This document shows positions 25,028 through 54,609 of a stretch of 64,000 nucleotides of DNA, one piece after another. Position numbers and translations under genes: made by a program. Each line of letters starts with the position of its first letter. Position 1 is the first letter of the stretch. This stretch comes from Takakia lepidozioides (lineage: Eukaryota > Plantae > Bryophyta): positions 11,160,001 to 11,224,000 of the forward strand of contig CM060731.1 of assembly GCA_030704615.1 (NCBI GenBank), read 5' to 3'. Below the pieces are notes generated by a model that was given only the letters and a program-made list of their open reading frames with translations, did not search any database and was not told where the DNA came from.

Positions 25028-27027
25028 CACTAGAAGAAAAACGTGGAATAACCACTCTATTAACCACTCATTATGAGTGGTAAAAGACACTAAACCATTT
25101 TGGCCCCAGAGTGATGAAGAACCAGTGGATTAGGACAAGTGAGTGGTAAAAGACATTGCGTGGCACTATTGGTTAAGGTCAGTGGTTCAAACCACTCACG
25201 TTCGGGTCCACCTGTTAGCTGACGTGTCACAGTGGTAAATTAACTTCTGTGACATGTCAATGACGTGTCACAAAGGTAAACTAACCACTTATGACGTGTC
25301 ACAGTGGTAAACTGACGTGTCATAGTGGTAAAGTAATGACTTCCGTTTTTGCAGTGGACACGTGTAAGCCGGTGGTCCGTGGATGATATTGGAGATTATG
25401 TCGACACGTGACGACACTCTCAGCATAGACACATGTTGTGTGTCAGTGCTACAAAATAGATAGAGTGAAAAATTCAATGACTTCCGAAACCACTCGTTGA
25501 GTGATCACGAAATGACTCATATAGTCATTCTATGAAAACTGAGAATATACAATATCATTCACAGCATGGTTATGTGAGTAGATGACGTCTCTTAGCAGAT
25601 CATTGGAGTGATTACCCACAGAGTGGTATGTAAACTGTTTGAGTCATCCATGGTGTCTCTCTGAGTGGGAACTATGGATTGGAGTGATTACTAACAGAGT
25701 GGTGTGTAAATGATTAGGAATACCACTGGAGGAATCCATACCACTAATACAGTAATATATAGGTGATTACTTATACCACTATATGAGTGGTATTATGGGC
25801 AATTGTGTGCATTTGGCTACTCCCACAGTTTTAAATTATACCACTATTACAGTGATGTGCAAGTGATTATGAACATGACTAGAGGAACACATACCACTAA
25901 TGTAGTGAAAGAAGTACCATTGGGGATTCAACCTCTACAAAATAGAATAGAATCCCAGAGAGTAAGTGCTGGAACATTGTCAACAAAATCCAGCCATGAT
26001 AAAAGTCTGAGCCTAACTTCTACATGGCCTCTCTGCATGCATGCTAGGAACACTGAACTCATGCCTTAAGTTCATGAAGTTTTTGCCTCAGTTGTCCCAC
26101 CATTGACTGGGGTCAGAAAAGTATTCATTCCACAGCTTCTCCTCGTCTCAGCTGTTACCTGTTTCTGGATACTTCCCTATTGTCACATTGGCAGTACCAT
26201 GTCAAAGTCGCTCCAAACTATCAAAGGCTCACACAACCAGCTAATTTGCAGAATTCAACATGAAAATTTAGGGCCTATTTTGATAAGAGGGAAAAAACAG
26301 GGTGAAATGTGTTGAAGAATGTGCCTTCATTACCAGTGCCTGAGTTTATCAACGATGCAATGGCGTGAGCCTTGCGCGTGAGCGCGCAAGCATACGCTCA
26401 CGCAGGAGTGACGTGGCGTGAGCGTGCACCTACGCTGACGTGGCGTGAGCATGATGTCAGCAGGCTGATATGATGACAAATGCTGATGTGGCATTGCGCC
26501 GTCATTTGTCACGTCAGCATGGACATGCGCCGCCTATAATCGAGGATGGTCTTATGACCGTGGGATTAATGCAAGGAATCCTTGGCTGAATACAATGAAG
26601 ACTACCATGGGGCCTACAATTGTAGCATCCAACATTGTGCAATTACAAATGTTTGTTTCACTTTTACAATTACAAGGACAAGAAAATATCCTCACAAAGT
26701 ATGCGCCATAGAGGCTGCCACGGGAAGACCTAGCTCCCTCCCCAAATAACAATGAGAGTTAGGATCATCTTCAAAAGATGATGGCATTGCATAGCGACAG
26801 GAAAACATGTAGACTTCGAAAAGTGCAATGATGCATATGCTTTTAAAAGTTGTCACTTAGAGCTCACTCAGTATAGTTGGAAGCATAATGAAGGGATAAG
26901 GGACGTCATATCATTGCACCGCCGACGATGTTGCAAACGAATTGATTTGAATTGAATTTCCATGACAATGTTGCAAATTGCACATTTTATAGCATGGTCG
27001 TCCACATATCACATTGCATAGCAGATG

Positions 27028-28140
27028 CTACCTATGTGTTGTATTCCGCTGCAATAGAGTATCGACCTCGTTGAAACTCAGAATAGCCTGGTGAACGAAG
27101 TTGTCACGTTTGGGATTGCAAACCATCATCTTCAAAAATATGAAATACAAATGTTTGCAGGGTATGAATTTACCTCTCTTGCCCAAACTGGTTGATAGCA
27201 TATTCACAAAATCAGGACATGTGCAATTGGGGAAATTGGAAACCGTGATGTCGTAGGCCCCGTCATGAACAGCAAATGTCAAAGTGATCATTGTGTACAC
27301 CCGACCGTATCCTGGATTGGGCACTTCCGTGGTGCTTGCAACACGAGCTTGGAGCATTCCTGCGGATTCCACTTTGCCGAAGTGTTCAGTGGTCGGAGGA
27401 AAACGCCGAACCAGCTTTCCATCTTATTTGGTTGGCCACAAGTGAGGATTTGCCAGAGGGACCCGAGAGGATGCAGAAGTAGAAGCACATGCATACAGTT
27501 GGGGTTTTCTCGCAAGGGAAAAGCCTGCCTCCTCCAGCATTGCAATCTCCTGACTCGTGAGATGTGTTCCCACCTTGACGGGCCAAACGGTTGGAGGAGC
27601 TAGCTTCATCACCACGGAAGGACGCACAGTTCCATGCAGACATCTACCACAATCGTCTGCGCAGAACCAAAATTTGTGGTTCTTGGCTTTCTGGTTGGCC
27701 GTATGGACGCATCACACCCGTGAAAGTCGGAGTAGGAGTCCGGGCACCACCTCTGGATATAGATGAAGTGCACTTTTCGAAATTAGTTGCCCTGATCGCT
27801 ATACATTTCACACGAGAACCTGCACTTGTGCGTTCTATGTGCCAAACGTGGTTGGGGAATGTTGACTTCAGCACATCAAGGAGGTAGTTTCTCTCCTGCA
27901 TCATTTCAGTGACATTGTTTGATGCTGGAGCCTGCCGTCGTGTCGGAGGTTTCTCCAGAATGGAGGTTCCGGACATGGATGTGTCATGCAGGGGAACACG
28001 AGGCTTCGAGAAGTTATCACGGTCTGCCCTGTACGAATCGGAATCTGAACTAGGTGGGGTGTTCAATTTCCTCTTACAGGAGCCGAATCTCTCCTCCCCT
28101 TCAAGATGTGGAATTCTAGAAACAAGTGGCGTTCCCTAGG
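27028..28140 (-). pseudogene. SWIM zinc-finger protein C-terminal part (transposon-associated)
   Basis: YDITVSNFPNCTCPDF...IPCKHLYFIF (CxC-xn-CxH); upstream frameshifted ORFs. Confidence 0.7.
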
Positions 28141-28144
28141 CATA

Positions 28145-29200
28145 CAAAAAAAAACAAAAAAAAACAGAAATGATGATCGGCGGCACCGACCATCGTATCC
28201 ACCCAAATGCCAAATGTCAAAAGCCACCTTAAATTTATTTAAAAACAAAACAAAAAAATAAAATCAAATAGTGATGATCGGTGGCACCGAAAGAAGTGAT
28301 TGTCGGCACCGGCCATCACATCCACCCAAATGCCGAATGTCAAAAACCAAAAAATAAATAAATAAATGATGATCAGCCATAGTGACAGAAGTGATGGTCG
28401 GCATCGACCATCGCATCCGCCCTAATGCCGAATGTCAAAAGTAAAAAAAAAAAGATCGGCGGCACTGACAGAAGTGATGGTCGGCACCGACCATCACATC
28501 CACCCAAATGCCGAATGTCAAAAGCCAAAAGAAAAAGAAAAAATAGAGAGTGGTGATCGGTAACAGAAGTGATGGTCAGCACTGATCATCACATCCACCC
28601 AAATGTCGAATGTCCCAAAAAAAAAAAAACGAAAAAGAATGATCGGCGGCACCGACAGAAGTGATTGTCGGCACCGATCATGGCATCCACCCAAATGCCG
28701 AATGTCAAAAAATTAAAATTTAAAAAAAAAATGATGATCGGCTGCACTGGCAGAAGTGATGGTCGGCACCGACCATCGCATCCGCCCAAATGCCGAATGT
28801 CAAAAGCCAATTAAAATTTATTAAGAAAAAAATAAAAAATAAACAAAAAGTGATGATCAACGGCACCGACAAAAGTGATGGTCGGTGCCGACCATCACAT
28901 CCACCCAAATGCCGAATGTCCCAAAAAAAAAACAGAGAGTGATGATCGGCGGCACCGACAGATGTGATGGTCGGCACCCAAATGTCGAATGAAAGAAAAG
29001 TATTTAAAAAAAAATGATCGGCGGCACCGACAGAAGTGATGGCCGACACCGATCATCACATCCATCCAAATGCCAAATATCAAAAGCAAAAAATAAAATA
29101 AAAAATAAAAATAAATAAATAACCAGAAGTAATGATCGGCACCGATCATCACATCCACCCAAATGCCGAATGTCAAATGCAAAAAAACAAAAAAAATTAT
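28145..29200. repeat. Tandem array of about 10 imperfect ~90-120 bp units with a hairpin core and A-rich spacers
   Basis: Unit GATCGGCGGCACCGACAGAAGTGATGGTCGGCACCGACCATCACATCCACCCAAATGCCGAATGTCAAAA followed by an A-rich tract. Confidence 0.9.
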
Positions 29201-29420
29201 GCGGCTACCGATTCCGCGGCTATAGGCCCCTTTCTCCCTGTTCTGTCCGCGGTCATAGGTACGCCCGTGGAAATGACATGGCGAGGCGTGACGTGACGTC
29301 AACCACGCTGACGAAGACTGCTGAAGTGGCGTCGGACCCTTGAGCCAACGTGGCGAGAACCGGTGACGTGGCGTGAGCTTGGCCGCGCTCACGCGGCTAG
29401 GCTCACGAGGAGGCATTCCC

Positions 29421-29700
29421 CGTACACTTCCAGCTTTGGTGATGCAACCATGCACCTCCGATGCCCTTTTCCAGGGCTGCCAGGCTTGCACACGCACTGC
29501 AAACGCACACAAACATGATGTGGTCGAACTTCACCCCTTCCCCCATCATTTGCTTTCAGGTCTCCAAAGCCCCATACAGCGCCCCTGCTCTGCACACCCC
29601 GTAAGCATCACATTCCACAATACCACATCTCATTCAGCCATAGTGTTGAACACTCCCTTGGCATCCTCAATGCTACCATATTTGGCATACATGGCCACCA
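29421..29700 (-). pseudogene. PLS-type PPR fragment
   Basis: MYAKYGSIEDAKGVFNTMAE*DVVLWN...EVHGCI; homologous to 44790-47330. Confidence 0.75.
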
Positions 29701-29702
29701 AA

Positions 29703-29840
29703 GGGGGGGTGCTATTCCGTGAGCCCGGAGGCGTGAGCCTGTGAGCCCAGGATACCGTGCGCCCAGCACAGGCTCACGCCACGTCAGCATGCATACAGGG
29801 CCTATTTCCGCGGGTATCACCTATTACCGCGGGTTGATCA
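29703..29840 (+). repeat. Left end of a second X-family element (X2)
   Basis: GGGGGGGTGCTATTCCGTGAGCC resembles the reverse complement of the X1 right end; shares CACGTCAGCATG and CTATnnCCGCGG motifs. Confidence 0.5.
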
Positions 29841-30417
29841 GCCCTTTCCAGGGAATGCAGACTGGATGTATTACATCCATTGTATCCATCCTTTCTATCC
29901 ATTGCATCCATTTAGACGTTATCAACATACCAAGCCCCTACATTGGAATGTGGCTCAATCGTGAGGAGGTGCACACTCACATCATCCAAAGCGGATCCCT
30001 GAGAAATGTTTTCTTACTCACCACCCTTGCGAACATGCCAGGTATGTGCGGGAGCATCATGGATGCTCACTAGAAGAATGCCTGAACGATCTTTGATCAC
30101 GTGGACTTTAACGTGATGGATTTATCAAGCATTCTTCTGGCAGGAATGGTTTGAGACCAACGAGCAAATGATGCGAGAATGCTCTACCCAAACCAAAGAC
30201 GTTTGTTTGTTTTTGCAATGCACACAAGCCTGTGAGCTCCACAAAACACTAAATAGATTGAAGGAACAATCCGGGTAGTCCATACAACCCCCATCTCCAA
30301 CGATAGTTTGTTCCCATGAATTTGCATCCCACGCAGACATTGCAAACATGACAACAAGGACACACAACCATCCCATTTCAAAATTGGCCCCGAATAAAAG
30401 CAAAAGAAAACTTCATA

Positions 30418-32610
30418 TCAAGTGTCACAGTCATCAGAATCAGTATCGACCTCCTCTGCTATGTCATCCACAAAGATTCCGGCCCCAACACCATCTTCTA
30501 CCATGGCCGTCGATGGTTGGACTGCGAGTGCCATGAACGGACATGCTTGCTGCGAGTGCCTCCGCATAGACGGGTAGCACGTAAGACTGAGGAGGACTTG
30601 AAAGAAGTCCAAAAAGGTGTGATAGCCCTGGAGGGTCAGTGGAAGCACACGGACTCCTACACAAGTCGACAAAAACGCATTTTGAATACAATGATGCAAT
30701 GCACAAGTCCAAGGAAGAGGATGTCTCTCATGTGCACTCTGCCTTAAGAACAGTGATTCTGGGTATTGAAACAACAATGCAAGCATCCACAGGTTGAACT
30801 TACCCACAGGCAAAGTCGAAGTCTAGCTCCTTGTCGAAAGTCTCCACTGTATCAATATCACCGGGAACGGGCTTCGGAAGGACTTGAGAAGTGTGTCCAC
30901 CCAAACCCATCAGGGTGTTCTTGTAAATCTCGACATCCCCTTCAATCCCAAAGAGATGTCTTGCACTAGCCTTGCAAGCGTGGTACGAAGCACCTGCAGT
31001 GGAATAGAACGAAGGAAACAGACATTGAAGACACATTTGGAACAGTGGGAAGTGCAGAAAGTGCAAGCTCAAACAAACCTGATGAAATGTGAATGTTGAA
31101 GAGACGAACATGTGCCCATTGACAAATCCAGAACTCTAGCGTCTGTGTAGGTGTAGCACTCCACAATCGTTTGAATAAAAGCCGGGCTCCTCTCCTTGAC
31201 CCCTCTCCAAGGAACCCCATTCCCCCTTTGCAAGCACACATTGCTGCCCACGTAGTTGTGGTGCATGTCATTCGTGGGAGGATCTGTCCTCTCGTCTATG
31301 AACTTGCCCCCATGAGTGATGCCAAACTCCCTAATGACGGCTGGAGTCGTAGGTGGATGCACCCGGACGAGACTAACAGCTTTAAATAGACGAGTCCACG
31401 AACAGGACATCCACAAGGAACTAAAAAGCTTGAAAACCAGGCCCCTACATATTCAGTTGAGCGACTTATGGAACTCCATCCGAGAACCACCAAGAAGAGG
31501 AATAAGAAGGCAGATTTACCTCCTGGACGATCCCCCTTTGTCAAGTACATGTTGTTCACACAATTCCATGTCTTCACGACCCTCATACCGGAGGCTTTCA
31601 AATAGCTGGCAAGTGCACGGCGACAGCGAAGGTCGATGGACTGAATGAGCAGCAAACACCTGCATCGGATAGAAAGAAATTGCAAAAGGAGAAAACCCAC
31701 CGCCAGTAGCGCTCATCAAAAGCATTCCAACCTGGACAAGCACTGGTTGGAGGAACATCCGGGACTGGCAACCCATCAGGGATGTCTAAGATGATGAGTT
31801 CGGCTGCATATGGCTTCTCCTTCCCGTTCACCGAGGATCTAGTCATTTAGCCTGCAAACAAGCATGCAATGAAATGCTCAAGACGCTTGAAACGAGCCAT
31901 GCCCACAACACACAAGAAGCAAAAGACAACACGCATCGTGCTGAGGAACTCCACAATCCTCTCCCACACTGGTGATGGATCGCCCTTGTAATCAGATTTC
32001 TTGGACTCCATCATGGCAAGGAACCCGACGTTGGCCATCTCCAACTTGGTAGGGCGAATGACCCTCGTGGGATCCTCCACCGCATGGTACGGGTCCTTAG
32101 GATCAACCACCCCCTTGTTCTTTCTCCCGGATCCCCTATCATGCGGTGGAGTCTCTTTGGTCAGCTGGACATCCGCCGCAGGGCCAGTTTCTGCAACACT
32201 TCCCTGCCCAACAACCTGCCCTTGCGCTCCCTTCCCCCTACCCCTTCCTTTCCCCACACCAACAGCAACATCCTTTCCCTTCGCCTTTCTACCTTTACCC
32301 GGGGTATCCTGAGCGGGAGGCTCCTTCTCTGCAAGTGTCCTCAAATTTCTATTTCGAGGTCGGCAGCTACGGCGGTAGCTGCCACATGCTCATTCTCTCT
32401 CCTCAAAGACACCTCCTGCGCTGGGGTCTCAGAAACAGGGCAATCCAAATACCAACCATAAGCAGAAAGATGGTCTGGGCCCTAGTCCTACAAGATCCCC
32501 GTAGTAAACATGGTCTGGTTGCCAGCAGGAACTAGCCACAAGTCCACGAAATCAGGATGTTTGTCCAAGCAGTTCTCTGCCATGAGAACATACTTTATGT
32601 ACCTGTAGGC
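30418..32610 (-). pseudogene. Spliced gene ending in a beta-class N4C/N6A DNA methyltransferase-like domain; upstream exons probably at 43720-44560
   Basis: AELIILDIPDG (motif IV-like), FFLSDAG, KERSPAFIQTIVECYT..DARVLDLSMGT/ASYHACKASARHLFGIEGDVEIY (motif X-I-II-like). GT..AG intron 31109-30994. Confidence 0.7.
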
Positions 32611-32777
32611 ACAGAGACAGCCTCATTATGCAATGCAACTATTGTCTCCCAGCTTTTCTACCACATCACGAAGACCCCCTAAAAGAGTATGCGGCACCGC
32701 ACACTGCAACCACCACACACAAAATAGCCTGAAGGGCCCAGGGTATGCACGTTGGTGTTACTACACACGGATAGAGC

Positions 32778-33133
32778 TGTCAAGTTAAATAAACACAGTG
32801 TGAAACTAACTAGAATAAATCTAGTTTTTTGTATTTAACACTTGGATTTAGTTCAAGTGTTAAGTCAGGTGTCAAGTTTAGTTTGACACCTGAACCGTCT
32901 TATCTTCACGAGAGCGTCAGTCGTGCGGCTCATCTCTCTCGAGTTGAGCCTGCACGACCGAGCTCCTTCACTGCTTAGAATCGGAGTGTGCTTATGAAGG
33001 GAGAATAGGATGTTGTGGGGTGGAGTCCCCATAGCTTGGGGTGCCCCTGGCTCGACTCTTAGTTTTAATGAGTGATTGTGTTGTGTTGAGTGTTTCTTTG
33101 TTATCAGACATGTGAGTTTAGTTATTTCAATCA
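32778..33133 (+). repeat. Copy B 5' terminal repeat A1 (356 bp)
   Basis: Matches 43264-43619. Confidence 0.92.
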
Positions 33134-33149
33134 CTTGAGAGAGATGATC
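33133..33149 (+). promoter_or_regulatory. Putative self-priming primer-binding site of copy B
   Basis: ACTTGAGAGAGATGATC is 15/17 complementary to GCTCATCTCTCTCGAGT at 32928-32944. Confidence 0.55.
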
Positions 33150-33507
33150 TTGCATCTGTGAGTGCCAGAGGTGAGTTTAGTTGTAGCACTTGTGGTTTTT
33201 GTTTTGAAAGTGAGAAAAGAAAATTATGGTGGTTTGTAGATTATGTTTGTGACAAGCTGGTTGAGACAGAGAAGCGATTATCTGTGTTCAGGTAATCTTT
33301 AGTTAGAAAGATGTCAAGTTTGGCCACTGGAGCGATGGTTAGAAAGCACGGTGAAGCCTTCTACTGTCTATCAGCTTTGTCATCGTTGTTGCCATCAAAA
33401 GGCTGACGGTGTGACAATGGCGGTGCCTTCCAGTGCCTAGGTTGAACGTACATGCCAGCACCTGGCATCGTCGGAGCATACTGGTCACCACCAACCTGTG
33501 CATTATG

Positions 33508-33769
33508 CGCCACCGTCGGTGCGGAAGCCGATGACGAAAGAATATCCTTCTTGCTAAAGGAGTTGGATGGTAAAGATATTACGGAGGTGATTGCTTCCGG
33601 TAGGGAGAAGTTTGCATCTATGCCATCAGGCGTAGGCGGCGGCGGCGGTGTTGTGGTGGCTTCCTCTGGTGGAGGTGGAGATGGAGGTGCTGCTGCTGCA
33701 CCTGTTGGAGAAAAGGAGGAAAAGAAGGAGGAGTCTAATGATGACATGGGTTTCAGCCTTTTCGACTAA
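33508..33769 (+). pseudogene. RPP2: Captured 60S acidic ribosomal protein P2 fragment (N-terminus missing)
   Basis: [39 protein letters not shown]...[13 protein letters not shown]. Confidence 0.88.
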
Positions 33770-33944
33770 GCTTGGGATGCAGTTTTGCAGCGCATCCGAT
33801 GGTTACTTTGATGCTATCTCAACTGCATGTGGCTGTTGAGCATTACTTAACAGTCGTTTTATACCTGCGCTGGTGCTGGTGGAGGTGACGCCATCGCCAC
33901 AGGAGCACCTTGCTTTATCCTCGGGGCGGCTGCTTGTTCTTCAG

Positions 33945-34065
33945 CTTATGTCTTCAACCTCCTCCAGATAGTCATTGAAGTCTCGAAGTGATGAAAACCC
34001 GTCCTCTCGTTTATTGAACAAGTTCTGAATTTTCCGACGCACAACAATCTCCTTGTTCATTTCGC
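33945..34065 (-). pseudogene. Captured MAT1 (CAK assembly factor) fragment
   Basis: KEIVVRRKIQNLFNKREDGFSSLRDFNDYLEEVEDI. Confidence 0.75.
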
Positions 34066-34229
34066 AGTGTTCGGCTTGTCCTTCTTGATCAACGCACTCT
34101 CTCAGACATTTCTGTGCTCTCAACTCCAAGCTAGGAAGAAAGAGGAGCAAAAGCTGGGGGCTGGATTCCGGAACTTGGTCGCAGACGGGCATTTGAAGAG
34201 GCCTTCATGAGTATGTGGATGAAGATAGC

Positions 34230-34830
34230 TGATATTGGAGAAGGTCATAAGTTGCATGAACCACAACCAAAGTTCCCTGCTTTGTGGTGGCACTCATGCA
34301 GAATGATTCTACCCCTTGTGATCTCAATGTCTTTTGAAACATGGGCCAGCAATCTGCTGCCTCTGGGATATCCATCTTGTTGTAAGCCACTACGTGTGGT
34401 TTAAGTGCCAAGTTGGCGTTGAAGAGCTGCAGCTCCAAGCGCACTGCTTCATACTCCTGAACAGCTTGCACACTTGTACCGTCCACCACCTGCACTAGGA
34501 CACGGCAATGCTCTGTGTGACGGAGGGACTCATGGCCCAAGCCCCCATGTGCTCTTCCAGCAGGCCGGGTAGATCAGCCACCACCATTGATGTGTCAAAA
34601 TCCAATGCCACTACCCCTAAGTTGGGCAGCAGTGTAGTGAAGGGATAGCTGGCAATTTCAGGGCGCACAGCACTGATGGCACTCAAAAGTGTGCTCTTGC
34701 CAGCATTTGGAACGGCCACTATGCCCACATCTGCAACCAGCTTCAGCTCCAATTCCACCCACATTTCTGCACCCTCTTCGCCATTTTCGGCCATCTGAGG
34801 AGTCTTGTTGCGACCAGTTTTGAGGCAGTG
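34230..34830 (-). pseudogene. Captured Obg-family GTPase fragment
   Basis: [23 protein letters not shown]; [11 protein letters not shown]; DLPGLLE; [15 protein letters not shown]; NKMD. Confidence 0.88.
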
Positions 34831-35599
34831 TTGCCTCACCCACCCCGACCTCCCGGCAGCAGCAGCTCCTGCTTCCCTGGAGTGGTCAATTCCAGCAGAA
34901 CATCTCCATTCCTTTAGTCTTCCCAACGCCGTGGCAACTCTGTGTTGACATTGGCTTCACCTGCTTTAGCCTTGGAAAGCTATTATGAAGGTTTGAAGAA
35001 GGCGTCCAAGGAATTCTTAGGGAACCTGCAGTGAATCGCAAAAAACGTGGGAACAAGGAACCAAAGGAAACCAATTGAAAATAGTTTTTCCTTGTATTTG
35101 TGTCTATTTAAGGTCATATATTATATTTACAGAGCCTCTTTGGCCATATCTTTGTCATATGAGCTCCGTTTGACACAGTTTTTGAAGGGATAGCTGTAGA
35201 AAGGGGAAATCTACCTACCTATTTAGTTTTTTGGACTCTGCTAAAAATCTATGGAATTTTTTGAGTGTGAGTGTGCTATGAAAGATCCACAATTCTGTTT
35301 CTAGAACCTGTTGTGGTTTACATGAGAGACAAATATGTGGATGTCCTCCTTATATGGCTGGGGGAAATGATGACGTAATTGAAGGGTCGGTGGTGAGGCT
35401 GGAGTGATGACCAGCAAGACCACCAGTGTTTCTTCTATGGTGAGGCTAGGTTGATGACCAGCCAACCATAGGAGTTCTTGTGGTGGATGCACGTGCACAT
35501 GCCCTGAGCCACTAGGATATGACCCTTAAACTGCAACAGGTGCCCACCCGTGTCACTATTAGAATTAGTACTAGAGCCTTATAGTGTCACGTAGGGGAG

Positions 35600-37300
35600 G
35601 TGCACGTTATGAGTGTCATCACGGAGTTACCCAAGGGTTTTGAGGGGAGTACGGCTACAGGCAGTCGCAGTGAGAGTGGGTTCACAAGACGAGGTATTCG
35701 GTTCAGACCACCTTCACCTCCACCATCAACTACTGTAGAGTCTGACACAGACCTGGAGGCTTCATCAACAGGTGTGCAGTTTTCTTCGCCATTATTGTGG
35801 GACGACATGGAGGAGATGTATGGAGCTACTAAGGGGCCTCGTAGGTACTCTGGAGCTGTGGGCACAATCGAGCTGGATGACTTTATCCAGGAGTTCGACA
35901 GCTGGTGTGATTTGCAGCAGATGCGCAATCCACAGCTGTTCACTCCATTCATGGCGTGGAAGGGATTGTTCCAGCATTTTGAAGGCCCGCCTATGGATGA
36001 TTACCACGAGTTCAGGCGAGGATATGAAGCAGAGATTGAGGAGTGGCGGATGTATTGGTCACCTGACTACGTCTCCATTACTCGAGGAACAACGCGACCA
36101 GTAGCGACATCAGCACCAATACCTCCCACGGCCAGCACTAGTAGTGGAACAAGTAGTGCTGGTACTTCTGTAGAAGGTGCTACTACTCCTTCTGCCACGA
36201 CTACAACACATGTGCCTAGATTCAGCCCGGTGGTGGAGTTCTTCCAGGAGTTGCGGAGAAACTACCAAGGTGTACGGACAGAGAAGCTGCGAAGTTTGTA
36301 AGACTTCCAGCGCAAATCCAGTGAGAGCCTGCGAGAGGCCTACACTTGTATGAGGCGCTTGATAAGTGTGACCCAAGGGGTTACTGAAGCTCAGGCAATC
36401 CAGTTCTGGTATGGAATTTTGGACAAGGCGCTCAGGAGAAGGGTGCGGGATACAACCCTGTTACAAGCAACCCAACCCACATTAGCAGATGTGTTTCTAC
36501 TGGCTGAGCGGATTGAGCTCAACATGCTGGAGGAGCGTGTTGTTACCATTGGATTTGGCAAGGACATGCCTGCACGAGGCGCAGCTGCCAGCCCATAGGC
36601 ACAGGGGACTGCCCAACAGCGTGGGCAGGGGGGCAAGGTTTCCCAACCCAAATTCCATGGAGCTTACAGGGGACCTCAGGTGCAGAGGCCAGTAGCATCT
36701 TTTGCAAGCCAACAGCAACCAGGGGTGATATGTTGGACATGTGGAGGACCCCATGTCAAGAAAGATTGCCCAGAGAGTGGCAAAAGGTCGGCACAAGCAC
36801 AGCCTACATAGTTGCAGTGTGGGCATTGTGGCAAGTATGGGCATGGAGATGCCCGGTGTTATGACTTGCACCCTGAGTTGCAGCAAGGCCAGTTCCAAGG
36901 GAACAATGGTGGCCGAGGGCGAGCTGGAGCACCTCAGAGAGGACGAGGTGGTCAGGCACGAGGTGTAGGACGAGGGCAAGCACAGTATGGCCAAGGACGT
37001 GGAGACCAGGGCGTTGACCAAGGCATGGCCAACCGGCTTCAGCAACTAGAGCCAAGGCTTGCTGCCATGGCCACAACTCAGGTGGTACCAGCTCCAAGAC
37101 CTGAGGGTCCACCTCATGTTCCTCCTTAGCAGCGTCATCCTGACGGAGGAGACATGGGAGGCATAGGATTTATGTGTGGGGCAACACTACCATTAGTGCA
37201 GGTGGAGTCTGCTGCAGCCGTCACTCGAGGAGCAGCACGAGTTCCTGAGCCACGAGGTGCAGAGGTGGAGTTAGATCCACATCGTGGGGAGGCAAGCCAT
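35600..37300 (+). pseudogene. Copy B gag with two CCHC knuckles; premature stops
   Basis: Homologous to A 11318-13067. Confidence 0.87.
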
Positions 37301-37799
37301 TAGGCTAGGTTGCCTCAATCATTCACCTTGGGGGAGATAGTGTCGACGACATCCATGGCACCTAATTCCCGCCCGACAGATACAGCGGCCGTTATTGTGC
37401 CATTGGGGAGAGCTACACGTGTAGCACTGACACCTGTTGCCAAGGCTAGTGTAGCCAGTGCGTTGTTGGGGGCAGCCACCTCTGTGTGTCAAGCCCCACT
37501 GTTCTCGGCGACCATGATCGCGACGCCAGGGGTAAGACCAGCTGCAGTGTTCAGACTAGCAGCAACACTCTGCGAGAGTGGGGAGGTCACTTCATCTTCT
37601 GCGGAGTTGGTGGAAGGTGTAGTGGCAGAGGAATCCTCGGATTTGAGGGTCAAGACTGCCACAGCTGCGCCATGGCAAGCTGTAGCTACCAGGTTGACGG
37701 AGCTGTCAGCTAGGCCAGCCTTTGAGCGCGCCATGGTAACACCTGGAGTTGTCTTGTTAGACAACCAGGATGTCATTTTCTCTTTGAGTGGACCGGCAG

Positions 37800-38190
37800 G
37801 CAAGAGGTACCGGCCACTGCGGGTCTTGTTGGACTCGGGAGCTCAGCCACTGATGTTGGGCAGAGCTGCTATTGCATGTTTGGGCCTCATGGAGGCGGAT
37901 ATAGAGCCTTTTCTTTTTTAGATACAGACATCTCTGGGAGGATCAGAGCAGGCTCGGGGCATGACACGGCGTGAGTTGGCCATTAGACTACAGCCGGATC
38001 ATCCTATAGATGGCTCAATGATGCGAGCCAAGATGTGACAGATGCGGTCTCTTACGATGTCCTTGTTGGTGGGGCGGTGTTATATCCTATGGGCTTCACC
38101 CTGGATTTTTGGGAGGAGTCAGCATCCTACAGGCCTGGATGGCAGTCAGGGGATGAAGTACAACTCCCTGTGACATTCATTGGGGGTGTT
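37800..38190 (+). pseudogene. Copy B aspartic protease
   Basis: RVLLDSGAQPLMLG; YDVLVGG. Confidence 0.85.
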
Positions 38191-38529
38191 GCTGCTGCCC
38201 AGCGGGGCAAGATGCCAACACTAACAGCCTTCACAGCTGCAGTTAGTTGGCATGGAGAGTTGCTGGAGGGCAATGCCCATGCAGAGGATGTGCCACCTCC
38301 AGCAGAGCAGGATGACATGCATGGTACGGCGGAGTTGTCTGCTATGATTGCTCACACTCCATTGTGGGATACGAGCAAGGATTTGCAGCAGGCTGCTGAT
38401 AGACGGGTGCAACAAGCCTGGGTAGAGGCCTTTGTACCGTCAGGAGAGGAGGAGAATGCGGTGATTGCACCAAGACCACCTGAGTTGTCGCCATTGGACA
38501 CCACACCTCTTGTGTGGCAGTGCCCGGAT

Positions 38530-39490
38530 GAAGGCACATGCCTTCTGGACTTGTTTGGCGGGATGAACACTGGATTGGCTGCATTGCTGCAGGCAGGTGT
38601 ACGAGTTTGACGTTACCTGGAGAGGGATGAGACTGCACGACGCATCTCACTGCGCCATGTTGCTCAGTTGGTGCAGCAGTATCCTGATTTGTTGCCAGTG
38701 TCTGCAGTTCGTGGATACCAACAGGCATTGCCAGCCGACATCTCTTTGCTGGGGGCGCATGATTTGGAGCGGGTTGACCCTATTCACTTGGTAGTGGCAG
38801 GTTGGCCTTGCCAAGGGCATTCATCAGCCGGGCATGACAATGGGTTACAAGACTCAAGGTCACGCCTGTTTTGGGAGATATTGAGGGTCCTACGCTATTT
38901 ACAACTTCAGCAGACAGACTCTCCGGCATATATCTTGGAGAATGTGCCATTGATGGGTGATTCTCGGGCCAAGGTGATGGCCAGTGTGCATCAAGTGCGG
39001 TCTTGGCTTGGGTTAGCAGTGTTGCTGAACGCAGCTGTAGTGGGGTCACGGGCTCATCGCCCACGACTATGGTGGACCAACTTGATGCCACCTGCACTGC
39101 TCAAGCGTGCATTTGATGGGGTGCAGCGGCCACCACACCTGACGGTGGATAGCATTTTGGACATAGGGAGACAGTCTCAACGTGTGAGACATGATGACCG
39201 ATCACCTTTGGCAGTGGTCAATAAGGTGGGTCACCCACAAGCCGCATTGCCTACACTGCTTAGCTTTCCAGGATCTCATGCTTTTCGGGATGGTGGACAT
39301 GGCCTCTTGTGGGATAGCCAGTTGCAGTAATTAGTAGAGCCCAATGCTGACGAGCGCAAGCGGGCGATGGGTTTCACCACTGGTACCACGGCGGTGCCCT
39401 CTTTTTCTGAGGCATCACGTCGTCAGGTGTTGGGGCAAGCAATGGATCTCAATTGCTTGACCTGGATTATCAGCTTGGCTATGGCTGAGC
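38530..39490 (+). pseudogene. Copy B DNMT3-like C5 cytosine methyltransferase with all major motifs; frameshift ~38610, TAA at 39328
   Basis: I LDLFGGMNTG; IV LVVAGWPCQG; VI YILENV; VIII GSRAHRPRLWWTN; IX ERKRAMGF; X RRQVLGQAM. Confidence 0.92.
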
Positions 39491-39780
39491 AGCGCAGAGT
39501 ACGGAGTACACTTCCCTTGATGGTCTCCCTGCCTACCGAGATGGTACAGGCAGCCAGTGGGGGCGAACAGGTGAGGACCACGAGGTGCATGCCGCATCCA
39601 TGGCACACGTGGGAGGTGCTCGAGGTTCAAAAGGAGTTGGCAGCCAAGGTGGCGGTAATGGATGAGGTTGGGGATTTTTCTTGGGTTGAGGAGGTCCTCA
39701 AGGATGGGATGATGGGGCAGGATGAGACATTGTCACTGACAGAGGAGGCAGTGATCACTGCTCAAGAGGTTGCAGCATAG

Positions 39781-42700
39781 CAACCACGGGACGCGTCTTC
39801 TACCTCTAAGCCTGCTGGACTCAAGGTTGCAGTCACGAAGGACAACTGGGAGCCTGATGTTGGACCTATAGTCACCGGAGGAGAGAAACGACGTATACGG
39901 CGGTTCTTGAGGGCTTACAGGAACTGCTTTGCCTTCAGTTTGAAGGACTTAGGAGCACTGAAGGGTCAAGAGATTCGCATTGAATTGGCTACTGACACGC
40001 CAATCTTTCGGAGACCCTATAGATACAGTGACATGGAGAGGTCTTTGATTCAGATGAGAACTCAGGACCTTTGGGGGCTGGTTTGGTGGAGCTATCTGGG
40101 GGAGAGTATGCTTCAGCCACAGTGATGCCAACCAAGAAGGATGTCTATGGCAATTGGACGGAGAGACGTATGTGCGGTGATTACCGGCCTGTAAATCGTC
40201 AGACCAAGTTCGATAGGTATGCCATGCCGACACCAGATGAGATCTTTGATGCCATTGGGCATGCCAAGGTCTTTAGCACTTTGGATTTACGATCCGGATA
40301 TCACCAATTGCCGATCAAGGAGGCGGATAAGCAGAAGACGACATTCTGGGGGATCAATGAGCACGGGAAAGATTGCCTATACCAGTGGCGGTTCTTACCA
40401 TTTGGGCTTAAGAATGCTCCGGCAGAGTTTTCAGAGAGTCATGGACAAGATTCTAGCAGGGGTGGAGTTTGCTCGGTGCTACATAGATGACATCATCATC
40501 TTTAGTGCTACGGTGGAGGAGCATGAGAGACACCTTCAAGTGGTATTTGAGCACTTGAGGGCGCACGGATTGAAGTTACATCCGGGGAAGTGCAAGTTTT
40601 TCCACAACCAAATTGAGTATCTGGGTCACATGATATATCTTGGAGGATTGGGGGTACAGCAGACTAAGGTAGAGGCCATTGCACGGATTCCACGCCCCAC
40701 GGATGTGAGCCGAGTTCGAGCTTTCATGGGGTTAGCAAACTATTATAGACGGTTTGTTAAGGGATTTAGTGCCATTGCAAAGGCTCTAACCAAACTGACC
40801 AAGATGGACCAGGAGTGGCAGTGGGAAGATGAGCAAGAACAAGCTTTTCAAGAGCTCAAGGCGAGGTTGACCTCGGCGCCCATCTTGAGACGACTTATCA
40901 GGGGGCGTCCTTTTCAGCTGCATACAGATTGGAGCATGCTGGGGCTTGGAGCGGTGCTCACATAGGTGGATGATGAGGGAAGAGAGTTCGTAGTGGCTTA
41001 TGCTAGCCGCTCGAACAACACTGCAGAGTCTAAGTATAGCTCATATGAGGGAGATTGCTTAGCTGCAGTGTGGGCCGTGGCACACTTCAGGTGCTATCTA
41101 TACGGCAATCTCTTCACCCTTGTCACGGATCACCAACCACTCAAGTGGTTGATGGAGTCAGACAAGCTTACGGGGAAGCTTGCACGGTGGGCACTCATCC
41201 TTCAAGAGTATGACTTTCAAGTTGTGCATCGACCGGGTTTGGTCAATCGGGATGCAGATGGGTTGAGTCGCAATCCATGCACGAGCCAGCAGGATGACAC
41301 TAGAGCTCGGTGGCATGGTGAGACGGACGAGGAGATGGTGCCTGGATGGCATGCATCTGCATTTCTGTGTATCTTGGCAGCGGAAGGCCAGGTTGGACCT
41401 GCAACAGGGATGACTGTAGATCAAGTGTCTGAGGACCCTGAGGCCAGCAATGAGCAAGGTGGCGCCAAAGATATACATGAGGATTCAGCTGTGTTGGACT
41501 ACCTCCGCACTGGAGACACGACAGCCACTGTGACTGCCAAGGAGAGGGATCGGATCCTACAACGAGCCAAGAGGTTCAAGTGGGAGGGGAGACACCTGCT
41601 CCGAGTGTGGGAGGATGGTCAAGTGAGGATTGTGCCTCACCCAACACAGCGGGCACGGTTAGTGCGGCATGCCCATGAGGAGTTGGGGCATTTTGGGGTG
41701 CGACGCACTCATAGTCTACTGCAGGGGCAGTATTGGTGGCGTGGTATGCACACAGAGGTGCAATAATTTGTGGCTAGGTGCATGGTGTGTGACAGGGTGC
41801 GTGTTTCATTCAATGCCCCTACTCCACAATTGCACCCTCTTCCGATCATAGGATTGGGCTACAGGTGGAGTCTTGATTTCGCAGGGCCGTTGTCACTAAC
41901 CATGCGCCACAACAAGTACGTGTTGGTGATGGTGGAGCACTTCTCCAAGTGGATCGAGTTGGTTCCATTGCATGATAAGGCTAGTGAGGGAGCTGCGTAT
42001 GCATTCTTGGATTGTGTACTTAGCCGATTTGGTACTCCAGCTGAGGTACTCACGGACCAAGGGAGAGAGTTCTTGGGGGAGTTTTCAGGCTTTGTGTGAC
42101 AAGGCCTTGGTAGACCACCGCACCACTTCTCGGGATCATCCTGAGGCCAATGGCTTGGCAGAGAGGGTTGTTCAGACAGTAAAGAGGGGTTTGCGCAAGT
42201 ATGGCTTGCAGAAGGGACACCTAGGAGATTGGGACCTTCAGTTACCCTGGTTAGCCATGGGCTATAGGTTCAGCAAGCAAACATCACTTGCCTCATTCTC
42301 ACCATACTTTCTTCTCTTTGGCCGAGAGCCGGATTTGCCTACATCCATTCGCAGAGAAGCTGCTATAGTTCTTAACCTTGACGATCCGGACGTCTGGGCA
42401 CGTGCATGTGATCAACGTGCAGAGTTGTTCAAGAAAGTCGTGCCCATGGCTTTCGAGAACCTTGCCATTGCACAACATCGTGATACGTTGAGGTATGCTA
42501 CCATACGTGGTGGGGGCTATCGTCATGGGGTTCGAAGATTCAACCCTGGTGACTATGTCTATCTGCAGCAGACTGCTCCTACGACCTTGGATGTGACTGC
42601 AGGACGTATTATTTTGAGGGTTCGAGAGGTCTTGCCCTCAGGCGTCTTGATCTTGGAGGGTCGGGATGGCATAACTTGGAAGGACCATGTGCGTAATTGT

Positions 42701-42916
42701 ACGTCATGTCACCTTCCGAATGTCGATGGCAGGATTGACCCAAACCTGGCAGTGGTACCTGCAAGTTTGAGGTGCATGTTGTGTGGGTCTGCTAGAGGGG
42801 CAGCTACCATGCTGGTGTGTGATCGATGCTCTAGAGGTTGGCATATGGGATGCTTGACTCCACCTCTTGAGATGGTTCCTGATGGGGATTGGTTATGTCC
42901 GCATTGCATTGGATAG
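39781..42916 (+). pseudogene. Copy B RT-RNase H-integrase-PHD
   Basis: YIDDI, TDWS, DDE residues, C4HC3 PHD at ~42773-42910; several frameshifts and stops. Confidence 0.92.
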
Positions 42917-43162
42917 TGGGAGTGGATACAACCATGGAAGGCTAACAAGAAATGCAGGGCCAAGCTACTAGGAGACCTTGAACACACGAGATCCTGGCTC
43001 AAGTTCACAGATTGCAAGACGGCGACTAACGATGGGGCTACTCTTGTACCCGGCCTCTTGGTCTATAGAGTTTGAGTACAATAGGGACAGTGATAGAGGA
43101 CTTAATACAGCTGTGGCTATTACATCTTGTAGCTATCTAAAATTAAAGGGACCTATCCACCA

Positions 43163-43705
43163 GCTAGGGGGGCGATTGTGGCAGACTACTTTATTGTGCA
43201 TATATGTGTGGTGTAGTTTGGACAACGATGTAGTTGTGTAGCGATACGTATGCGCACGACAACTGTCAAGTTAAATAAACACAGTGTGAAACTAACTAGA
43301 ATAAATCTAGTTATTTGTATTTAACACTTGGATTTAGTTCAAGTGTTAAGTCAGGTGTCAAGTTTAGTTTGACACCTAAACCGTCTTATTTTCACGAGAG
43401 CGTCAGTCGTGCGGCTCATCTCTCTTGAGTTGAGCCTGCACGACCGAGCTCTTTCACTGCTTAGAATCAGAGTGTGCTTATGAAGGGAGAATATGATGTT
43501 GTGGGGTGGAGTCCCCATAGCTTGGGGCGCCCCTGGCTCGACTCTTAGTTTTAATGAGTGATTGTGTTGTGTTGAGTGTTTCTTTGTTATCAGACATGTG
43601 AGTTTAGTTCTTTCAATCATTGTGGCAGACTACTTTATTGTGCATATATGTGTGGTGTAGTTTGGACAGCGATGTAGTTGTGTAGCGATACGTATGCGCA
43701 CGACA
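43163..43705 (+). repeat. Copy B 3' terminus: PPT ~43164-43176, B1 43177-43261, 2-nt spacer, A2 43264-43619, B2 43621-43705
   Basis: 85-bp B repeats; junction GACA-AC-TGTC. Confidence 0.93.
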
Positions 43706-44789
43706 GAGCAAATGTGTGTGCGGCACCGCACACTCATATGAGCCAGCACAAAACAGGTTGGATGGAGGAGATGTATCTTTGCAAATCAAAGAAGCATGGT
43801 CTATTTCGCATCTGTAAAGGCATCGTTTCTAGGCTTCCTCTCCTTTCTCTTGCTGGTCAAGCTCATTTGTTCGACTGATGCCACCCTCTTTGTTGAACTC
43901 CCTGAAGAAACAAGATTGCCACACTGTGGCTCTCCATTTCCGCATGTATGCTTGGAAGGAGACCTTCGGTGCTGTCATGGTGATGTCATAGTCAGCCAGC
44001 TGCGTATGTAAAACAGACTGGGCTCTTTCCTCCAACTGCAAAACAACTTGAATGCAAGAATGAACTAGAAATCAATCACAACCAATGTAACATGGAAAGA
44101 GAACGACAAAAAAGCGAAACGAAAGTGACACAGCAAAAGACATCATACCTGGCTCCAGTAAGTGGTCTTGTGAAGCCATGTGTCCATCATATTGTCACTG
44201 ACAGGAATGACACGCTGGTCTTCTTCTCTTTCTCCGGCCTGGGGAACATGTGGATATCCCTAACAGTGGGATCGGAGTTCCATATTTGTAGCCACTTCAC
44301 CTTCTATTATGAAGACACAATGGCGGTAGACAACCTGTGTAACTTCTCCTGGGCCATCTCCGGCTTGCCTGGCTTGTTGTAATGGTTTTTCACCTCTTGA
44401 AGAAACTGCGGTCCGAATGATGGGTCGGCAATTCTCAACTGCTTAACAAAAGCACTCATAATAGTCCGTCATATGTAATCTGTTCCACATCTACGTCGTT
44501 CTGACATTGCGATGCCCAGCGCGAACCTGTTATATTGGTGTTTTCCGAAGCAGGTCGGTGATAAAAGCATTCGAAAACTGTGAGTGCGAATATTTTTCCT
44601 AGCTCGATAAATAGGCTTACTGGAATACTACAGCTCTACCCCTGAGGAGAGAAGGACAACAAAGGGGGTTGAGAGTCACATCAAGCAAGAGATGACCGCC
44701 ACAGCAGTGGGCCTTGTTCTATCAATTGCGCTGCTACCATTGCTGTTTCCAGTTGACCATCTACCCACTCGTAGCCGTTGTGTTGTTGA

Positions 44790-47330
44790 AGAAGGTGCCC
44801 CCCCTTCCCCCATCATTTGCTCATAGCTCTCCAAAGCCTCCATCCCACGTCCCTGCCGTGCATACCATGCAAGCATCACACTCCACGACACCACATCTCG
44901 TTCAGCCATAGTGTCGAACACTCCCTTTGCATCCTAGATGCACCCACATTTTGCAAACATGTTCACCAGGGTTTTGTTCACGATGACATCTGGTACAATT
45001 CCAACTCTGAAGATGTCGCCATGGACCTCTTTCCCCTAAGTTGCCAGGGCAGTGTTCAGATTGACATTTGGCACAATTCTAGCTTTGATGATATCCCCAT
45101 GCACCTCTTGCCCTTCTCTAGGGCTGCTAGGCTTGCACAAGAATTGCAAATGCACACAAACATGATGTGCTTCCCCCATCCTTTGCTCATAGGTCTCCAA
45201 AGCCTCCATCCCACGTCCCTGCCGTGCATACCTTGCAAGCATCGCACTCCACGACACCACATCTCGTTCAGCCATAGTGTCGAACACTCCCTTTGCATCC
45301 TAGATGCACCCACATTTTGCAAACATGTTCACGAGGGTATTGTTCAGAATGACATCTGGTACAATTCCAACTCTGAAGATGTCGCCATGGACCTCTTTCC
45401 CCTTTTCCAAAGCTGCTAGGGCAGTGTTCAGATTGACATTTGGCACAATTCCAGCTTTGATGATATCCCCATGCACCTCTTGCCCTTCTCTAGGGCTGCT
45501 AGGCTTGCACAAGAATTGCAAATGCACACAAACATGATGTGCTTCCCCCATCCTTTGCTCATAGGTCTCCAAAGCCTCCATCCCACGTCCCTGCCGTGCA
45601 TACCTTGCAAGCATCGCACTCCACGACACCACATCTCGTTCAGCCATAGTGTCGAACACTCCCTTTGCATCCTAGATCCTAGATCCCTTTGCACCCACAT
45701 TTTGCAAACATGTCCACCAGGGTATGGTTTAGAATGACATTTGGTACAATTCCAGCTCTGAAGATGTCGCCATGGACCTCTTTCCCCTTTTTCCAGAGCT
45801 GCCAGGGCAGTGTTCATAATGACATTTGGTACATTTCCAGCTTTGATGATACCCCATGCACCGCTTTGCCCTTGTCCAGGCTCGATGCACCCACATTTTG
45901 CATAAATGTCCACCAGGGTATGGTTCAGAATGACATCTCTTTGCCCTCGTCCAGGCTCAATGCACCCACATTTTGCATACATGTCCACCAGGGTATGGTT
46001 CAGACTGACATTTGGTACAATTCCAGCTCTGAAGATGTCACCATGGACCTCTTTCCCCTTTTTCCAGAGCTGCCAGAGCAGTGTTCATAATGACATTTGG
46101 TACAATTCCAGCTTTGATGATACCCCATGCACCTCTTTGCCCTCGTCCAGGCTCGATGCACCTACATTTCGCATACATGTCCACCAGGGTATGGTTCAGA
46201 CTGACATTTGGTACAATTCCAGCTTTGATGATACCCCATGCACCTCTTTGCCCTCGTCTAGGCTCGATGCACCCACATTTCGCATACATGTCCCCCAGGG
46301 TATGTTTCAGACTGACATTTGGTACAATTCCAGCTCTGAAGATGTCGCCATGGACCTCTTTACCCTTTTCCAGAGCTGCCAGGGCAGTGTTCAGATTCAC
46401 ATTTGGTACAATTCCAGCTTTGATGATATCCCCATGCACCTCTTTGCCGGCGCCCTTCTCCAAGCCGGCTACCAGGCTTGCACAAGCATTGCAAATGCAC
46501 ACAAACATGATGTGCTTCCCCCATCATTTGCTCATAGCTCTCCAAAGCCTCCATTCCACATCCCTGCTGTGCATACCCTGCAAGCACATCATATCGCACT
46601 CCACGACACCACATGTCGTTCAGCCATAGTGTCGAACACTCCCTTTGCATCCTAGATGCACCCACATTTTGCAAACATGTCCACCAGGGTATTATTCAGA
46701 ATGTCATCTGGTACAATTCTAGCTCTGAAGATGTCGCCATGCACCTCTTTCCCCATTTCCAAAGCTGCCAGGGCAGTGTTCAGATTGACATTTGGCACAA
46801 TTCCAGTTTTTATGATATCCCTATGCACGTCTTGCCCTTTTCCAGGGCTGCCAGGCTTGCACGCACATCGCAAATGCACACAAACATGATGTGCTTCCCC
46901 CATCATCTGCTCACAGCTCTCCAAAGCCTCCATCCCACGTCCCTGCCGTGTATACCCTGCAAGCATCGCACTCCACGACACCACATCTTGTTCAGCCATA
47001 GTGTCAAACACTCCCTTTGCATCCTAGATGCACCCACATTTTGCACACATGTTCACCGGGATATTGTTCAGAATGACATCTGATACAATTCCAGCTCTGA
47101 AGATGACGCCATGGACCTCTTTCCCATTTTCCAAAGCTGCTGGGGCAGTGTTCAGATTGACATTTGGCACAATTCCAGCTTTGATGATATCCCCATGCAA
47201 CTCTTGCCCTTCTCCAGGGCTGCTAGGCTTGCACAAACATTGCAAATGCACACAAACACGATGTGCTTCCCCCATCATTTGCTCATAGGTCTCCAAAACC
47301 TCCATCCCACGTCCATGCCGTGCATACCCT
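44790..47330 (-). pseudogene. Tandemly amplified PLS-type PPR pseudogene (units ~366-372 bp plus a sub-array of shorter units)
   Basis: Repeated MFAKCGCI*DAKGVFDTMAERDVVSWSAML..YA.QGRGMEALE..GKEVHG. Confidence 0.88.
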
Positions 47331-50300: not shown

Positions 50301-50454
50301 TAAATTAACTTAAGTCTGCAATATGACTGGTTACTCAAAATTTGGTTCTCAGTGTGAGTAAAGTTGATTAAATTGATGCCCCTAAACCGAAACTCCATGT
50401 CAAATAGATATAAGAGCTGGTTGAAGGCACTGTGTACTGGCCTAAAACCAACCA

Positions 50455-50572
50455 CATAGTCACAAAGGTCTAGATCGGCCACATCCTGAAGCATCGACTG
50501 CCTGTTTCGCAGCTGTTGAATGGCTTCTAGTGGGTTTGGCACAATCACGTCTGGATACTTCTGCTTAAAATC
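50455..50572 (-). pseudogene. Captured inositol-tetrakisphosphate 1-kinase (ITPK)-like exon
   Basis: DFKQKYPDVIVPNPLEAIQQLRNRQSMLQDVADLDL, preceded by a TGTAG acceptor. Confidence 0.7.

Positions 50573-51998: not shown

Positions 51999-52001
<3 letters not shown>

Positions 52002-52055
<54 letters not shown>
52002..52055. repeat. (GA)n microsatellite
   Basis: Direct inspection. Confidence 0.95.
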
Positions 52056-52058
<3 letters not shown>

Positions 52059-54133: not shown

Positions 54134-54210
54134 AAAAAAAACAACGCGAGGAGTTTGAACCCGCGACCCCGCGACACGCAGGAAGAGCCTTACCAGTACG
54201 CTACATGCAC
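54134..54210 (-). ncRNA. tRNA-derived Pol III-like element (SINE head or tRNA pseudogene)
   Basis: A-box-like TAGCGTACTGG, B-box GGTTCAAACTCC, followed by a T run; cloverleaf incomplete. Confidence 0.35.
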
Positions 54211-54609
54211 ACATTTGAAATTTCCCCCCAAAAGTATGCATATATTGTACATACGTGATGGGCAACTTTTTAAGTTTTTAACCTTTTTACAAACCCTATA
54301 AGTAATTTTTTTTAAATAAATTTTAAATGAAACCTCAGGCCCTTGAGGAGGGGAAAAAATTAACCCCCTTTCATTTATGGGCCATGAGACCTACAGGATG
54401 ATCAACGCCTAGACATACCATCGTCACAAACAATCCCACACATGGGGTAATGCAGCAAGTTTGAACCCTGAACCACCAGGGCAACACACTCTGCACTTAC
54501 CAACCGATGTGCTTTTTAAAAATCTTTTGCACTTTGATTTTTTTTTTAAAAATTCATTTTAGTGGTTACAAGTGAGCACATAGATGTATTCCATGGAGAT
54601 AAACAAAAC

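Follow-up and report, generated by a model that had tools for sequence, protein, structure and literature searches.

A beta-class amino-methyltransferase-like gene with an acidic tetrad residue, nested within a CACTA element of the moss Takakia lepidozioides

INTRODUCTION

Few beta-class amino-methyltransferases have been described in eukaryotes, and for land plants our literature searches found the Marchantia enzyme alone. Marchantia MpDN4MT1a and MpDN4MT1b are encoded by two tandem host genes, contain a TSPPY motif and have demonstrated 4mC activity, according to the accessible text of their description (bioRxiv 2021.02.12.428880). The bdelloid rotifer enzyme N4CMT has an SPPY motif fused to a chromodomain and is the product of a host gene that silences transposons, as given in the available parts of PMC8885841 and PMC10406627. 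In the portion of PMC12344493 at hand, Marchantia and Adineta are the only 4mC cases named. Related domains are also carried by mobile elements. The DAM-like methylases of DIRS elements have been called likely inactive, and permuted eukaryotic clades with unusual motifs have been described (PMC4738411, in part). In the accessible part of a further report, DAM-LTRs are stated to be absent from streptophytes, the Dam domains there being in retroelements (bioRxiv 10.64898/2026.05.21.726589).

Here we describe a methylase-like gene in a window of 64,000 nucleotides of the Takakia lepidozioides genome; the window is the whole stretch of DNA that was analysed, and all positions refer to it. An earlier note on this DNA had proposed an intron-containing, bacterial-type beta-class gene inside a DNA transposon. 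Like the PF01555 enzymes CcrM, M.MboIIA, M1.HpyAVI, M.RsrI and M.PvuII, the plant family to which the gene belongs has motif IV before motif I, is colinear with them over 206 profile columns and retains D-x-P, a Trp, the motif-I Asp and the motif-II Glu. Unlike these enzymes, where the fourth tetrad residue is Tyr or Phe, it has Asp or Glu at this position and WRGxREK in place of HPTQK; it also scores below the Pfam cut-off, contains introns and has an N-terminal extension of ∼450 aa and a conserved C-terminal tail.

The family shares with Marchantia DN4MT1 a prokaryote-type beta-class domain in a seed-free land plant, but has D-x-P-[D/E] rather than TSPPY; the two are set apart on the published description (seen in part). 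No protein named DN4MT1 was among the matches of our homologue searches with an exon and with the family profile. With bdelloid N4CMT, as far as the available text describes it, the family shares a PF01555-type domain with spliceosomal introns in a eukaryote, but lacks the (T)SPPY motif. The DIRS and LTR DAM-like methylases resemble it in that an amino-methylase domain is carried by a mobile element; in the sources as available to us, those domains are unpermuted, Dam-type, have NPP and lie in retroelements, whereas the plant family has a permuted domain of the beta class, encoded by an intron-rich gene that stands alone. None of the permuted clades described in the accessible part of PMC4738411 fits the plant family. 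The best reading is a family distinct from Marchantia DN4MT1 and rotifer N4CMT.

RESULTS AND DISCUSSION

Layout of the gene

Six-frame translation placed both motif blocks on the minus strand, within 30804-31846. The ELIILDIPDG block contains the tetrad D-I-P-D, with codons at 31786-31775 (−). The VLDLSMGT block ends at 31111 and is followed by a 116-nt GT..AG intron (31109-30994, −), after which the sequence continues as ASYHAC..RHLFGIE. The methylase-like domain consists of four pieces (31846-31655, 31654-31520, 31395-31110 and 30993-30804, −) and the gene as a whole spans approximately 44507-30421 (−). Its parts, in the order of transcription, are:

43800..44507, minus strand: first two exons, encoding the N-terminal domain; interrupted by four stops and, near 44216, by a frameshift
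31967..32596, minus strand: middle exon or exons, a short conserved block and a low-complexity basic linker; three stops; boundaries approximate
31655..31846, minus strand: exon piece with the motif-IV strand, the tetrad D-I-P-D (31786-31775), GLPVP, the conserved Trp and the first helix
31520..31654, minus strand: continuation of the exon past a frameshift, strand-helix-strand
31396..31519, minus strand: intron of 124 nt; donor GT, acceptor GG, in contrast to AG at this position in L208 and L210
31110..31395, minus strand: exon with a variable (target-recognition-like) region, the WRG-x-x-E block (counterpart of HPTQK) and the start of SAM-binding motif I
30994..31109, minus strand: GT..AG intron of 116 nt that cuts motif I, at the same codon and phase as in L208, L209 and L210
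30804..30993, minus strand: exon with the remainder of motif I, a helix and the acidic motif-II strand (LFGIE)
30421..30656, minus strand: last exon; encodes the conserved tail motif S-P-P-x-S/T-[FY]-x-L-P at the C-terminus; 3′ boundary approximate

L208, L209 and L210 are loci on metagenome contigs. The window gene is colinear with L208 and with proteins of 758-810 aa from the moss Ceratodon purpureus. The moss proteins match the window collinearly between 44450 and 30497; the N-terminal domain, linker, methylase-like domain and tail therefore constitute one gene, and the long N-terminal fusion noted earlier is real. The N-terminal domain is predicted, with low confidence, to be helical; it belongs to no known family and had no match in the ESM Atlas. 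The motif-I intron interrupts the identical codon in the identical phase in all four DNA loci, and the position of the intron before it is common to three of three, in agreement with the description of the gene as intron-containing.

Evidence for the methyltransferase fold

None of the four domain pieces encoded by the window exons matched PF01555 at E ≤ 1, none of the 97 window open reading frames did so at E ≤ 0.1, and single-exon word-index homologue searches gave no match. Annotation misses the family because an intron cuts the SAM motif and single exons score nothing in Pfam. All three moss proteins compared with PF01555 matched it (E 0.0024-0.034, 14.5-18.3 bits), below the gathering cut-off of 26.7 bits. 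There was a PHROG methylase match (E 2.5e-5), and tblastn gave weak matches, mostly to annotated phage methylases. For one window exon, 26 of the 30 ESM Atlas matches were assigned to PF01555 with a score of 0.92; 156 of 256 features were shared, below the 170 that are typical of same-family matches. Against the PDB, a profile that included intron tails returned only photosystem I noise, and the moss profile found no sequence at E ≤ 10, although N4CMT structures are in the PDB.

A usable frame was obtained for 183 of 203 fetched phage loci, and a reference profile was built from 162 distinct beta-class methylases of phages. This set was grown from three seeds chosen for matching the moss protein, which introduces a slight bias, and positions described as ‘invariant’ are so relative to the phage set only, because the seeds were picked by that match. 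The spliced window model scored 24.6 bits on the phage profile, with the match covering the SAM block only. The best of 500 shuffled sequences, 166 of which were reported at all, scored 2.3 bits, and the reversed spliced model −3.6 bits. A profile of seven plant-type sequences matched the phage profile with a probability of 98.3% over 206 columns. The catalytic half alone (the first 163 columns) gave a probability of 85% (E 6e-6), compared with at most 7% in 30 column shuffles, and this alignment puts D-x-P on DPPY. The catalytic motif and the SAM-binding block thus lie, as had been claimed, in that order within one colinear domain.

An AlphaFold model from the five moss sequences alone had a pLDDT of 28.6. 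With 78 phage rows added, a confident core was predicted, the loop after motif IV having low confidence. The latter model matches MboIIA (Z 17.8, rmsd 3.1, 201 residues aligned) and CcrM (E 1.7e-10), and also HpyAVI and N4CMT, but these matches are circular because phage methylases were in the alignment from which it was built. At the level of profile comparison, the assignment of the window pieces to a predicted beta-class amino-methyltransferase fold of bacterial type is confirmed.

An old and repeated family

A phmmer search with one exon against 1.84 billion representatives gave eight matches. Six were family fragments with 31-44% identity, and two (P0004 and P0007) were dropped as repetitive or low-complexity proteins. 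A profile of the six fragments found three C. purpureus proteins, and two more were cluster members (KAG0632178, KAG0614198, KAG0605740, KAG0624017 and KAG0561977 together). These proteins resemble the window gene in end-to-end architecture, in the domain (31% identity) and in D-x-P-acid-GLPVP; unlike the window copy, they have intact reading frames as annotated. The UniRef entry A0A8T0GTT4 has the automatic label ‘DNA methylase N-4/N-6 domain-containing protein’. Each of the five moss records is on a contig of a different length, in keeping with a mobile gene.

A metagenome scan yielded three loci (L208, L209 and L210) from 36 candidates; a scan with moss-specific patterns yielded none from 449. 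L208 (290-3060) contains nearly the whole gene, with one frameshift in the catalytic exon, on a contig with 35% GC; over its 3.7 kb there was no SWIM or transposase similarity to the window. A scan of viral contigs with N-terminal patterns, which is a weak test of viral origin, gave none from 76. Domain identities among the window, L208, L210 and moss sequences are 24-38%, so the family is old.

Other copies of the window gene were seen through the short contigs of sequencing runs, in which depth is no copy number. In one run, 3195 contigs map to 2081 bases of the gene, and the methylase-like gene is plainly highly repeated. The family is apparently old, repeated and separate from the Marchantia enzyme. 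Full-text literature searches, which covered main texts, found no description of it, and it is apparently undescribed so far. A PPR-methylase fusion, as in clade 2 of Iyer, was discarded as a description of the gene, as the moss proteins have no PPR match and the PPR pieces in the window lie outside the gene.

The fourth tetrad residue is acidic in three lineages

The motif-IV tetrad is DIPD in the window, DAPE in all five moss proteins and DIPE in L208, with GLPVP next in each case; these three lineages have 30-35% mutual identity. In the phage alignment the fourth residue is Tyr in 95 of 95 rows and the second varies (P, L, I or M). The aromatic fourth residue of the (D/N/S)-P-P-(Y/F/W) tetrad is absent from all three readable plant-type lineages, and on this alignment an acidic residue in its place is common to the family.

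The earlier note had regarded the tetrad of this copy as atypical. DIPD is indeed present and its acid is shared by three lineages, so that what had appeared as a peculiarity of one copy is a family trait. Because the fourth position is acidic in all three, DIPD is not a decayed DPPY, and the corresponding origin from DPPY or DIPY was rejected on two grounds: relatives carry Glu, and the differences to other copies spare the tetrad codons. The latter applies to the 40 best supported of the 204 differences, 27 of which lie within 30804-31846 and alter 24 codons, nine of them silently. The codon adjacent to the tetrad was covered by 41 contigs.

Other positions are also changed. The Lys of W-x-K (95 of 95 phage rows) is replaced in the plant-type family, as is the His of HPTQK (94 of 95 rows), where a family-specific WRGxREK is found. 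In motif I (D-x-x-x-G-x-G), the first Gly is kept in the window and is Ser in moss; the last is Cys in the window and L210 and Gly in moss, L208 and L209. The Asp and Pro of motif IV have been retained, as have the Trp that follows, the Asp of motif I and the Glu of motif II.

Among the moss paralogues (five informative pairs of six, with one identical pair and the near-duplicate P0016 set aside), identity is 91-93% in the domain, 77-82% in the N-terminus, 58-72% in the linker and 80-88% in the tail. Since the domain is the best conserved region, the altered active site appears to be under constraint rather than decaying. Replacement of the corresponding Tyr by Gly abolishes activity in HP0593 (PMC3036652, available text), and in N4CMT the Tyr at the fourth tetrad position was modelled as stacking on the target base (PMC10406627, available text). 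The proposal of an N4C/N6A enzyme similar to those of the liverwort and rotifers is therefore not supported, given the acidic fourth residue and the replacement of other near-invariant active-site positions.

The window copy is disrupted

Relative to contigs of other copies, and with matching loose ends, the window gene lacks 1 nt near 31845, 1 nt at ∼31653 and 5 nt immediately before the splice donor at 31519; in most runs, each of these gaps is visible in a small share of the depth. The splice acceptor at 31397-31396 is GG, whereas relatives have AG, and the upstream exons contain at least seven stops. With these frameshifts, stops and the lost acceptor the window copy is unable to make the protein; it is dead, as the earlier note had recognized in calling it disrupted.

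The gene appears to belong to an insert nested in a CACTA element

The following features surround the gene:

25028..56171: enclosing CACTA element, termini CACTAGAAGAAAAACG, 3-bp GCA duplication
26342..44710: nested insert, bordered by GCCT at either end; contains the methylase-like gene, the SWIM gene, a PPR piece and the tandem array
27031..28135, minus strand: gene with a frameshift, encoding a SWIM-like zinc finger at the C-terminus (PF04434, E 0.0022, below the cut-off)
28168..29196: tandem array located upstream of the SWIM gene, ten units of 73 nt with an internal palindrome
29703..29790: G-rich block resembling a terminus, located downstream of the methylase-like gene and containing CGTGAGC / TGACGTGG motifs
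32777..43706, plus strand: Ty3/Gypsy element in an intron of the methylase-like gene, 4-bp GAGC duplication

The CACTA terminus is present in exact copies at 25028 and, in inverted orientation, at 56171. GCA borders the element at both ends, and the sequence flanking it on either side is Gypsy reverse transcriptase. The sole transposase remnant within it is a DUF4218 match (54584-54925, +, E 6.8e-16), on the strand opposite to the methylase-like gene; no complete TnpD transposase was found in the element.

Contigs that join ∼26337 to 44711, as expected of an empty site, were observed in one sample (four in run X1 and one in run X2), although such contig joints can also arise from repeats. This joint and the GCCT on both sides indicate that an insert of 18.4 kb (7.4 kb without the later Gypsy element) is apparently nested in PPR-type cargo. 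Its two ends have no joining terminal inverted repeat, the duplication reads 4 bp, and neither a transposase nor a DDE domain was found in it. In three runs, the summed contig depth over the gene exceeded that over the CACTA left end by a factor of 2.6-8, and the empty-site joint skips the gene. The gene thus appears to belong to the nested insert rather than to the CACTA element's own gene set. The earlier placement of the gene inside a DNA transposon is physically correct (25028-56171), but it is apparently part of a more abundant insert within that element. G-rich blocks similar to that at 29703-29790 occur at 26350-26460 and 29340-29421, giving three CGTGAGC/TGACGTGG blocks in the insert. 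The SWIM part may be a separate Mutator-like unit. Compared with Mutator-like elements, which have long terminal inverted repeats, duplications of 9-11 bp and a DDE transposase with SWIM, the insert shows a SWIM-like finger and the G-rich terminus-like blocks.

Possible functions of the family

Because an acidic residue replaces the catalytic tyrosine, the protein would be likely to bind rather than to methylate DNA. With a probability of about 0.5, we favour a mobile-element-borne SAM- and DNA-binding regulator with a rebuilt active site, rather than a conventional writer of 4mC or 6mA. On this view, a mobile element of seed-free land plants would have taken up a prokaryotic beta-class methylase in the distant past, and the gene would have acquired introns and a helical N-terminal domain. 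The pocket for SAM, with the motif-I Asp and motif-II Glu, would have been retained, as would the Asp-x-Pro in contact with the amino group of the base; the aromatic ring that stacks on the flipped base, and with it canonical methyl transfer, would have been lost. Intact copies could bind the DNA of their own element, the CGTGAGC/TGACGTGG blocks being possible sites, and counter host silencing by reading or shielding bases there. Against a pseudo-enzyme, the second tetrad residue varies in phage and the Asp, Pro, Trp, a Lys and the motif-I Asp are kept, so that catalysis by another route is possible. Against an element-borne protein stands the nested insert's lack of any detected transposase.

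The retained motif-IV Asp and Pro, downstream Trp, motif-I Asp and motif-II Glu, in a domain that is the most conserved region, would also fit intact copies that are active DNA amino-methyltransferases, marking their own element with 4mC or 6mA through a non-canonical D-x-P-[D/E]. We consider this the less likely reading. Unusual motifs in strand 4 are known from other permuted eukaryotic clades too (PMC4738411, in the part available), and element-borne methylases with conserved pockets have been reported (bioRxiv 10.64898/2026.05.21.726589). The accessible text of the latter source describes streptophytes as being without abundant 6mA, which speaks against such activity. The absence of the aromatic fourth residue from three of three lineages also argues against it, as do the loss of the W-x-K Lys and HPTQK His and the Ser in place of the first motif-I Gly in moss. 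A broader form, in which an ancient element family carries a base-modifying enzyme with a new D-x-P-[D/E] chemistry that marks or unmasks its own DNA against 5mC silencing by the host, is in our estimate doubtful. If it were true, this would be the first case of a plant non-retroviral element with an anti-silencing factor derived from an amino-methylase, and a source of non-5mC marks in mosses and their relatives that has gone unrecognized. A redirected domain, active as a methyltransferase on RNA, protein or a small molecule, seems very improbable. The SAM-binding block is the best-scoring part and prokaryotic amino-methylases recruited by eukaryotes have often turned to RNA (PMC4738411, in the part available), but no RNA-binding domain is fused to the gene, the nearby PPR pieces being separate decayed repeats, and RNA amino-methylases also keep the aromatic fourth residue (PMC8885841, in the part available).

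We think it unlikely that the family is one of host genes in seed-free plants, with copies that transposons picked up and multiplied as passive cargo. Intron positions conserved over a deep divergence would suit a host gene, captured host pieces (PPR, ITPK and ribosomal-protein) are common in the window, and the gene has no transposase next to it. However, the gene is present and repeated at high depth over its full length, from start to tail, while the captured ribosomal-protein and GTPase pieces have ∼1/150 of its depth in run X1, and moss has several dispersed paralogues. With a conserved non-canonical site and intact Ceratodon proteins, a new catalytic variant and the pseudo-enzyme reader that we favour are cleanly separable, and either outcome would inform the question of how methylation machinery borrowed by plant mobile elements is turned against silencing by the host.

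Other elements in the window

The Gypsy element within the gene encodes a DNMT3-like C5 methylase (38500-39480, +; PF00145, E 2.2e-12) upstream of its reverse transcriptase, with a C-terminal PHD finger. A second copy of this methylase is located at ∼9300-10130 (−); both copies are broken, and Gypsy sequences with the DNMT3-like methylase are very abundant in the runs. The element resembles the Klebsormidium Gypsy-Dnmt3 type (PMC5890265, as described in the accessible text). Within the Gypsy span, and at low depth, are a 60S acidic ribosomal protein piece (33446-33769, +) and an OBG GTPase piece (34498-34956, −).

Decayed tandem PPR units with a 372-nt period, also very abundant in the runs, occupy 44670-47330 and 29420-29710 (−). 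The region 47996-54109 is a separate element with TAGGG termini and long inverted repeats; it has a second pair of ends at 48051-53062 and an acidic frame at ∼51040-51260, and contains a piece (∼50440-50580) that we take to be from an inositol-tetrakisphosphate kinase. At 25980-26330 (−) there is a degenerate frame with the motif W-x-E-Y-F-x-D-P-x-Q-W-W-D-N, reminiscent of the organellar ssDNA-binding (OSB) proteins. A further CACTA-like terminus, with one mismatch to the 25028/56171 pair, was found at 3677-3690 (−). Two frames at 15638-16319 (−), located among Gypsy remnants, have matches to stress up-regulated Nod 19 (PF07712, E 2.5e-21 and 1e-14).
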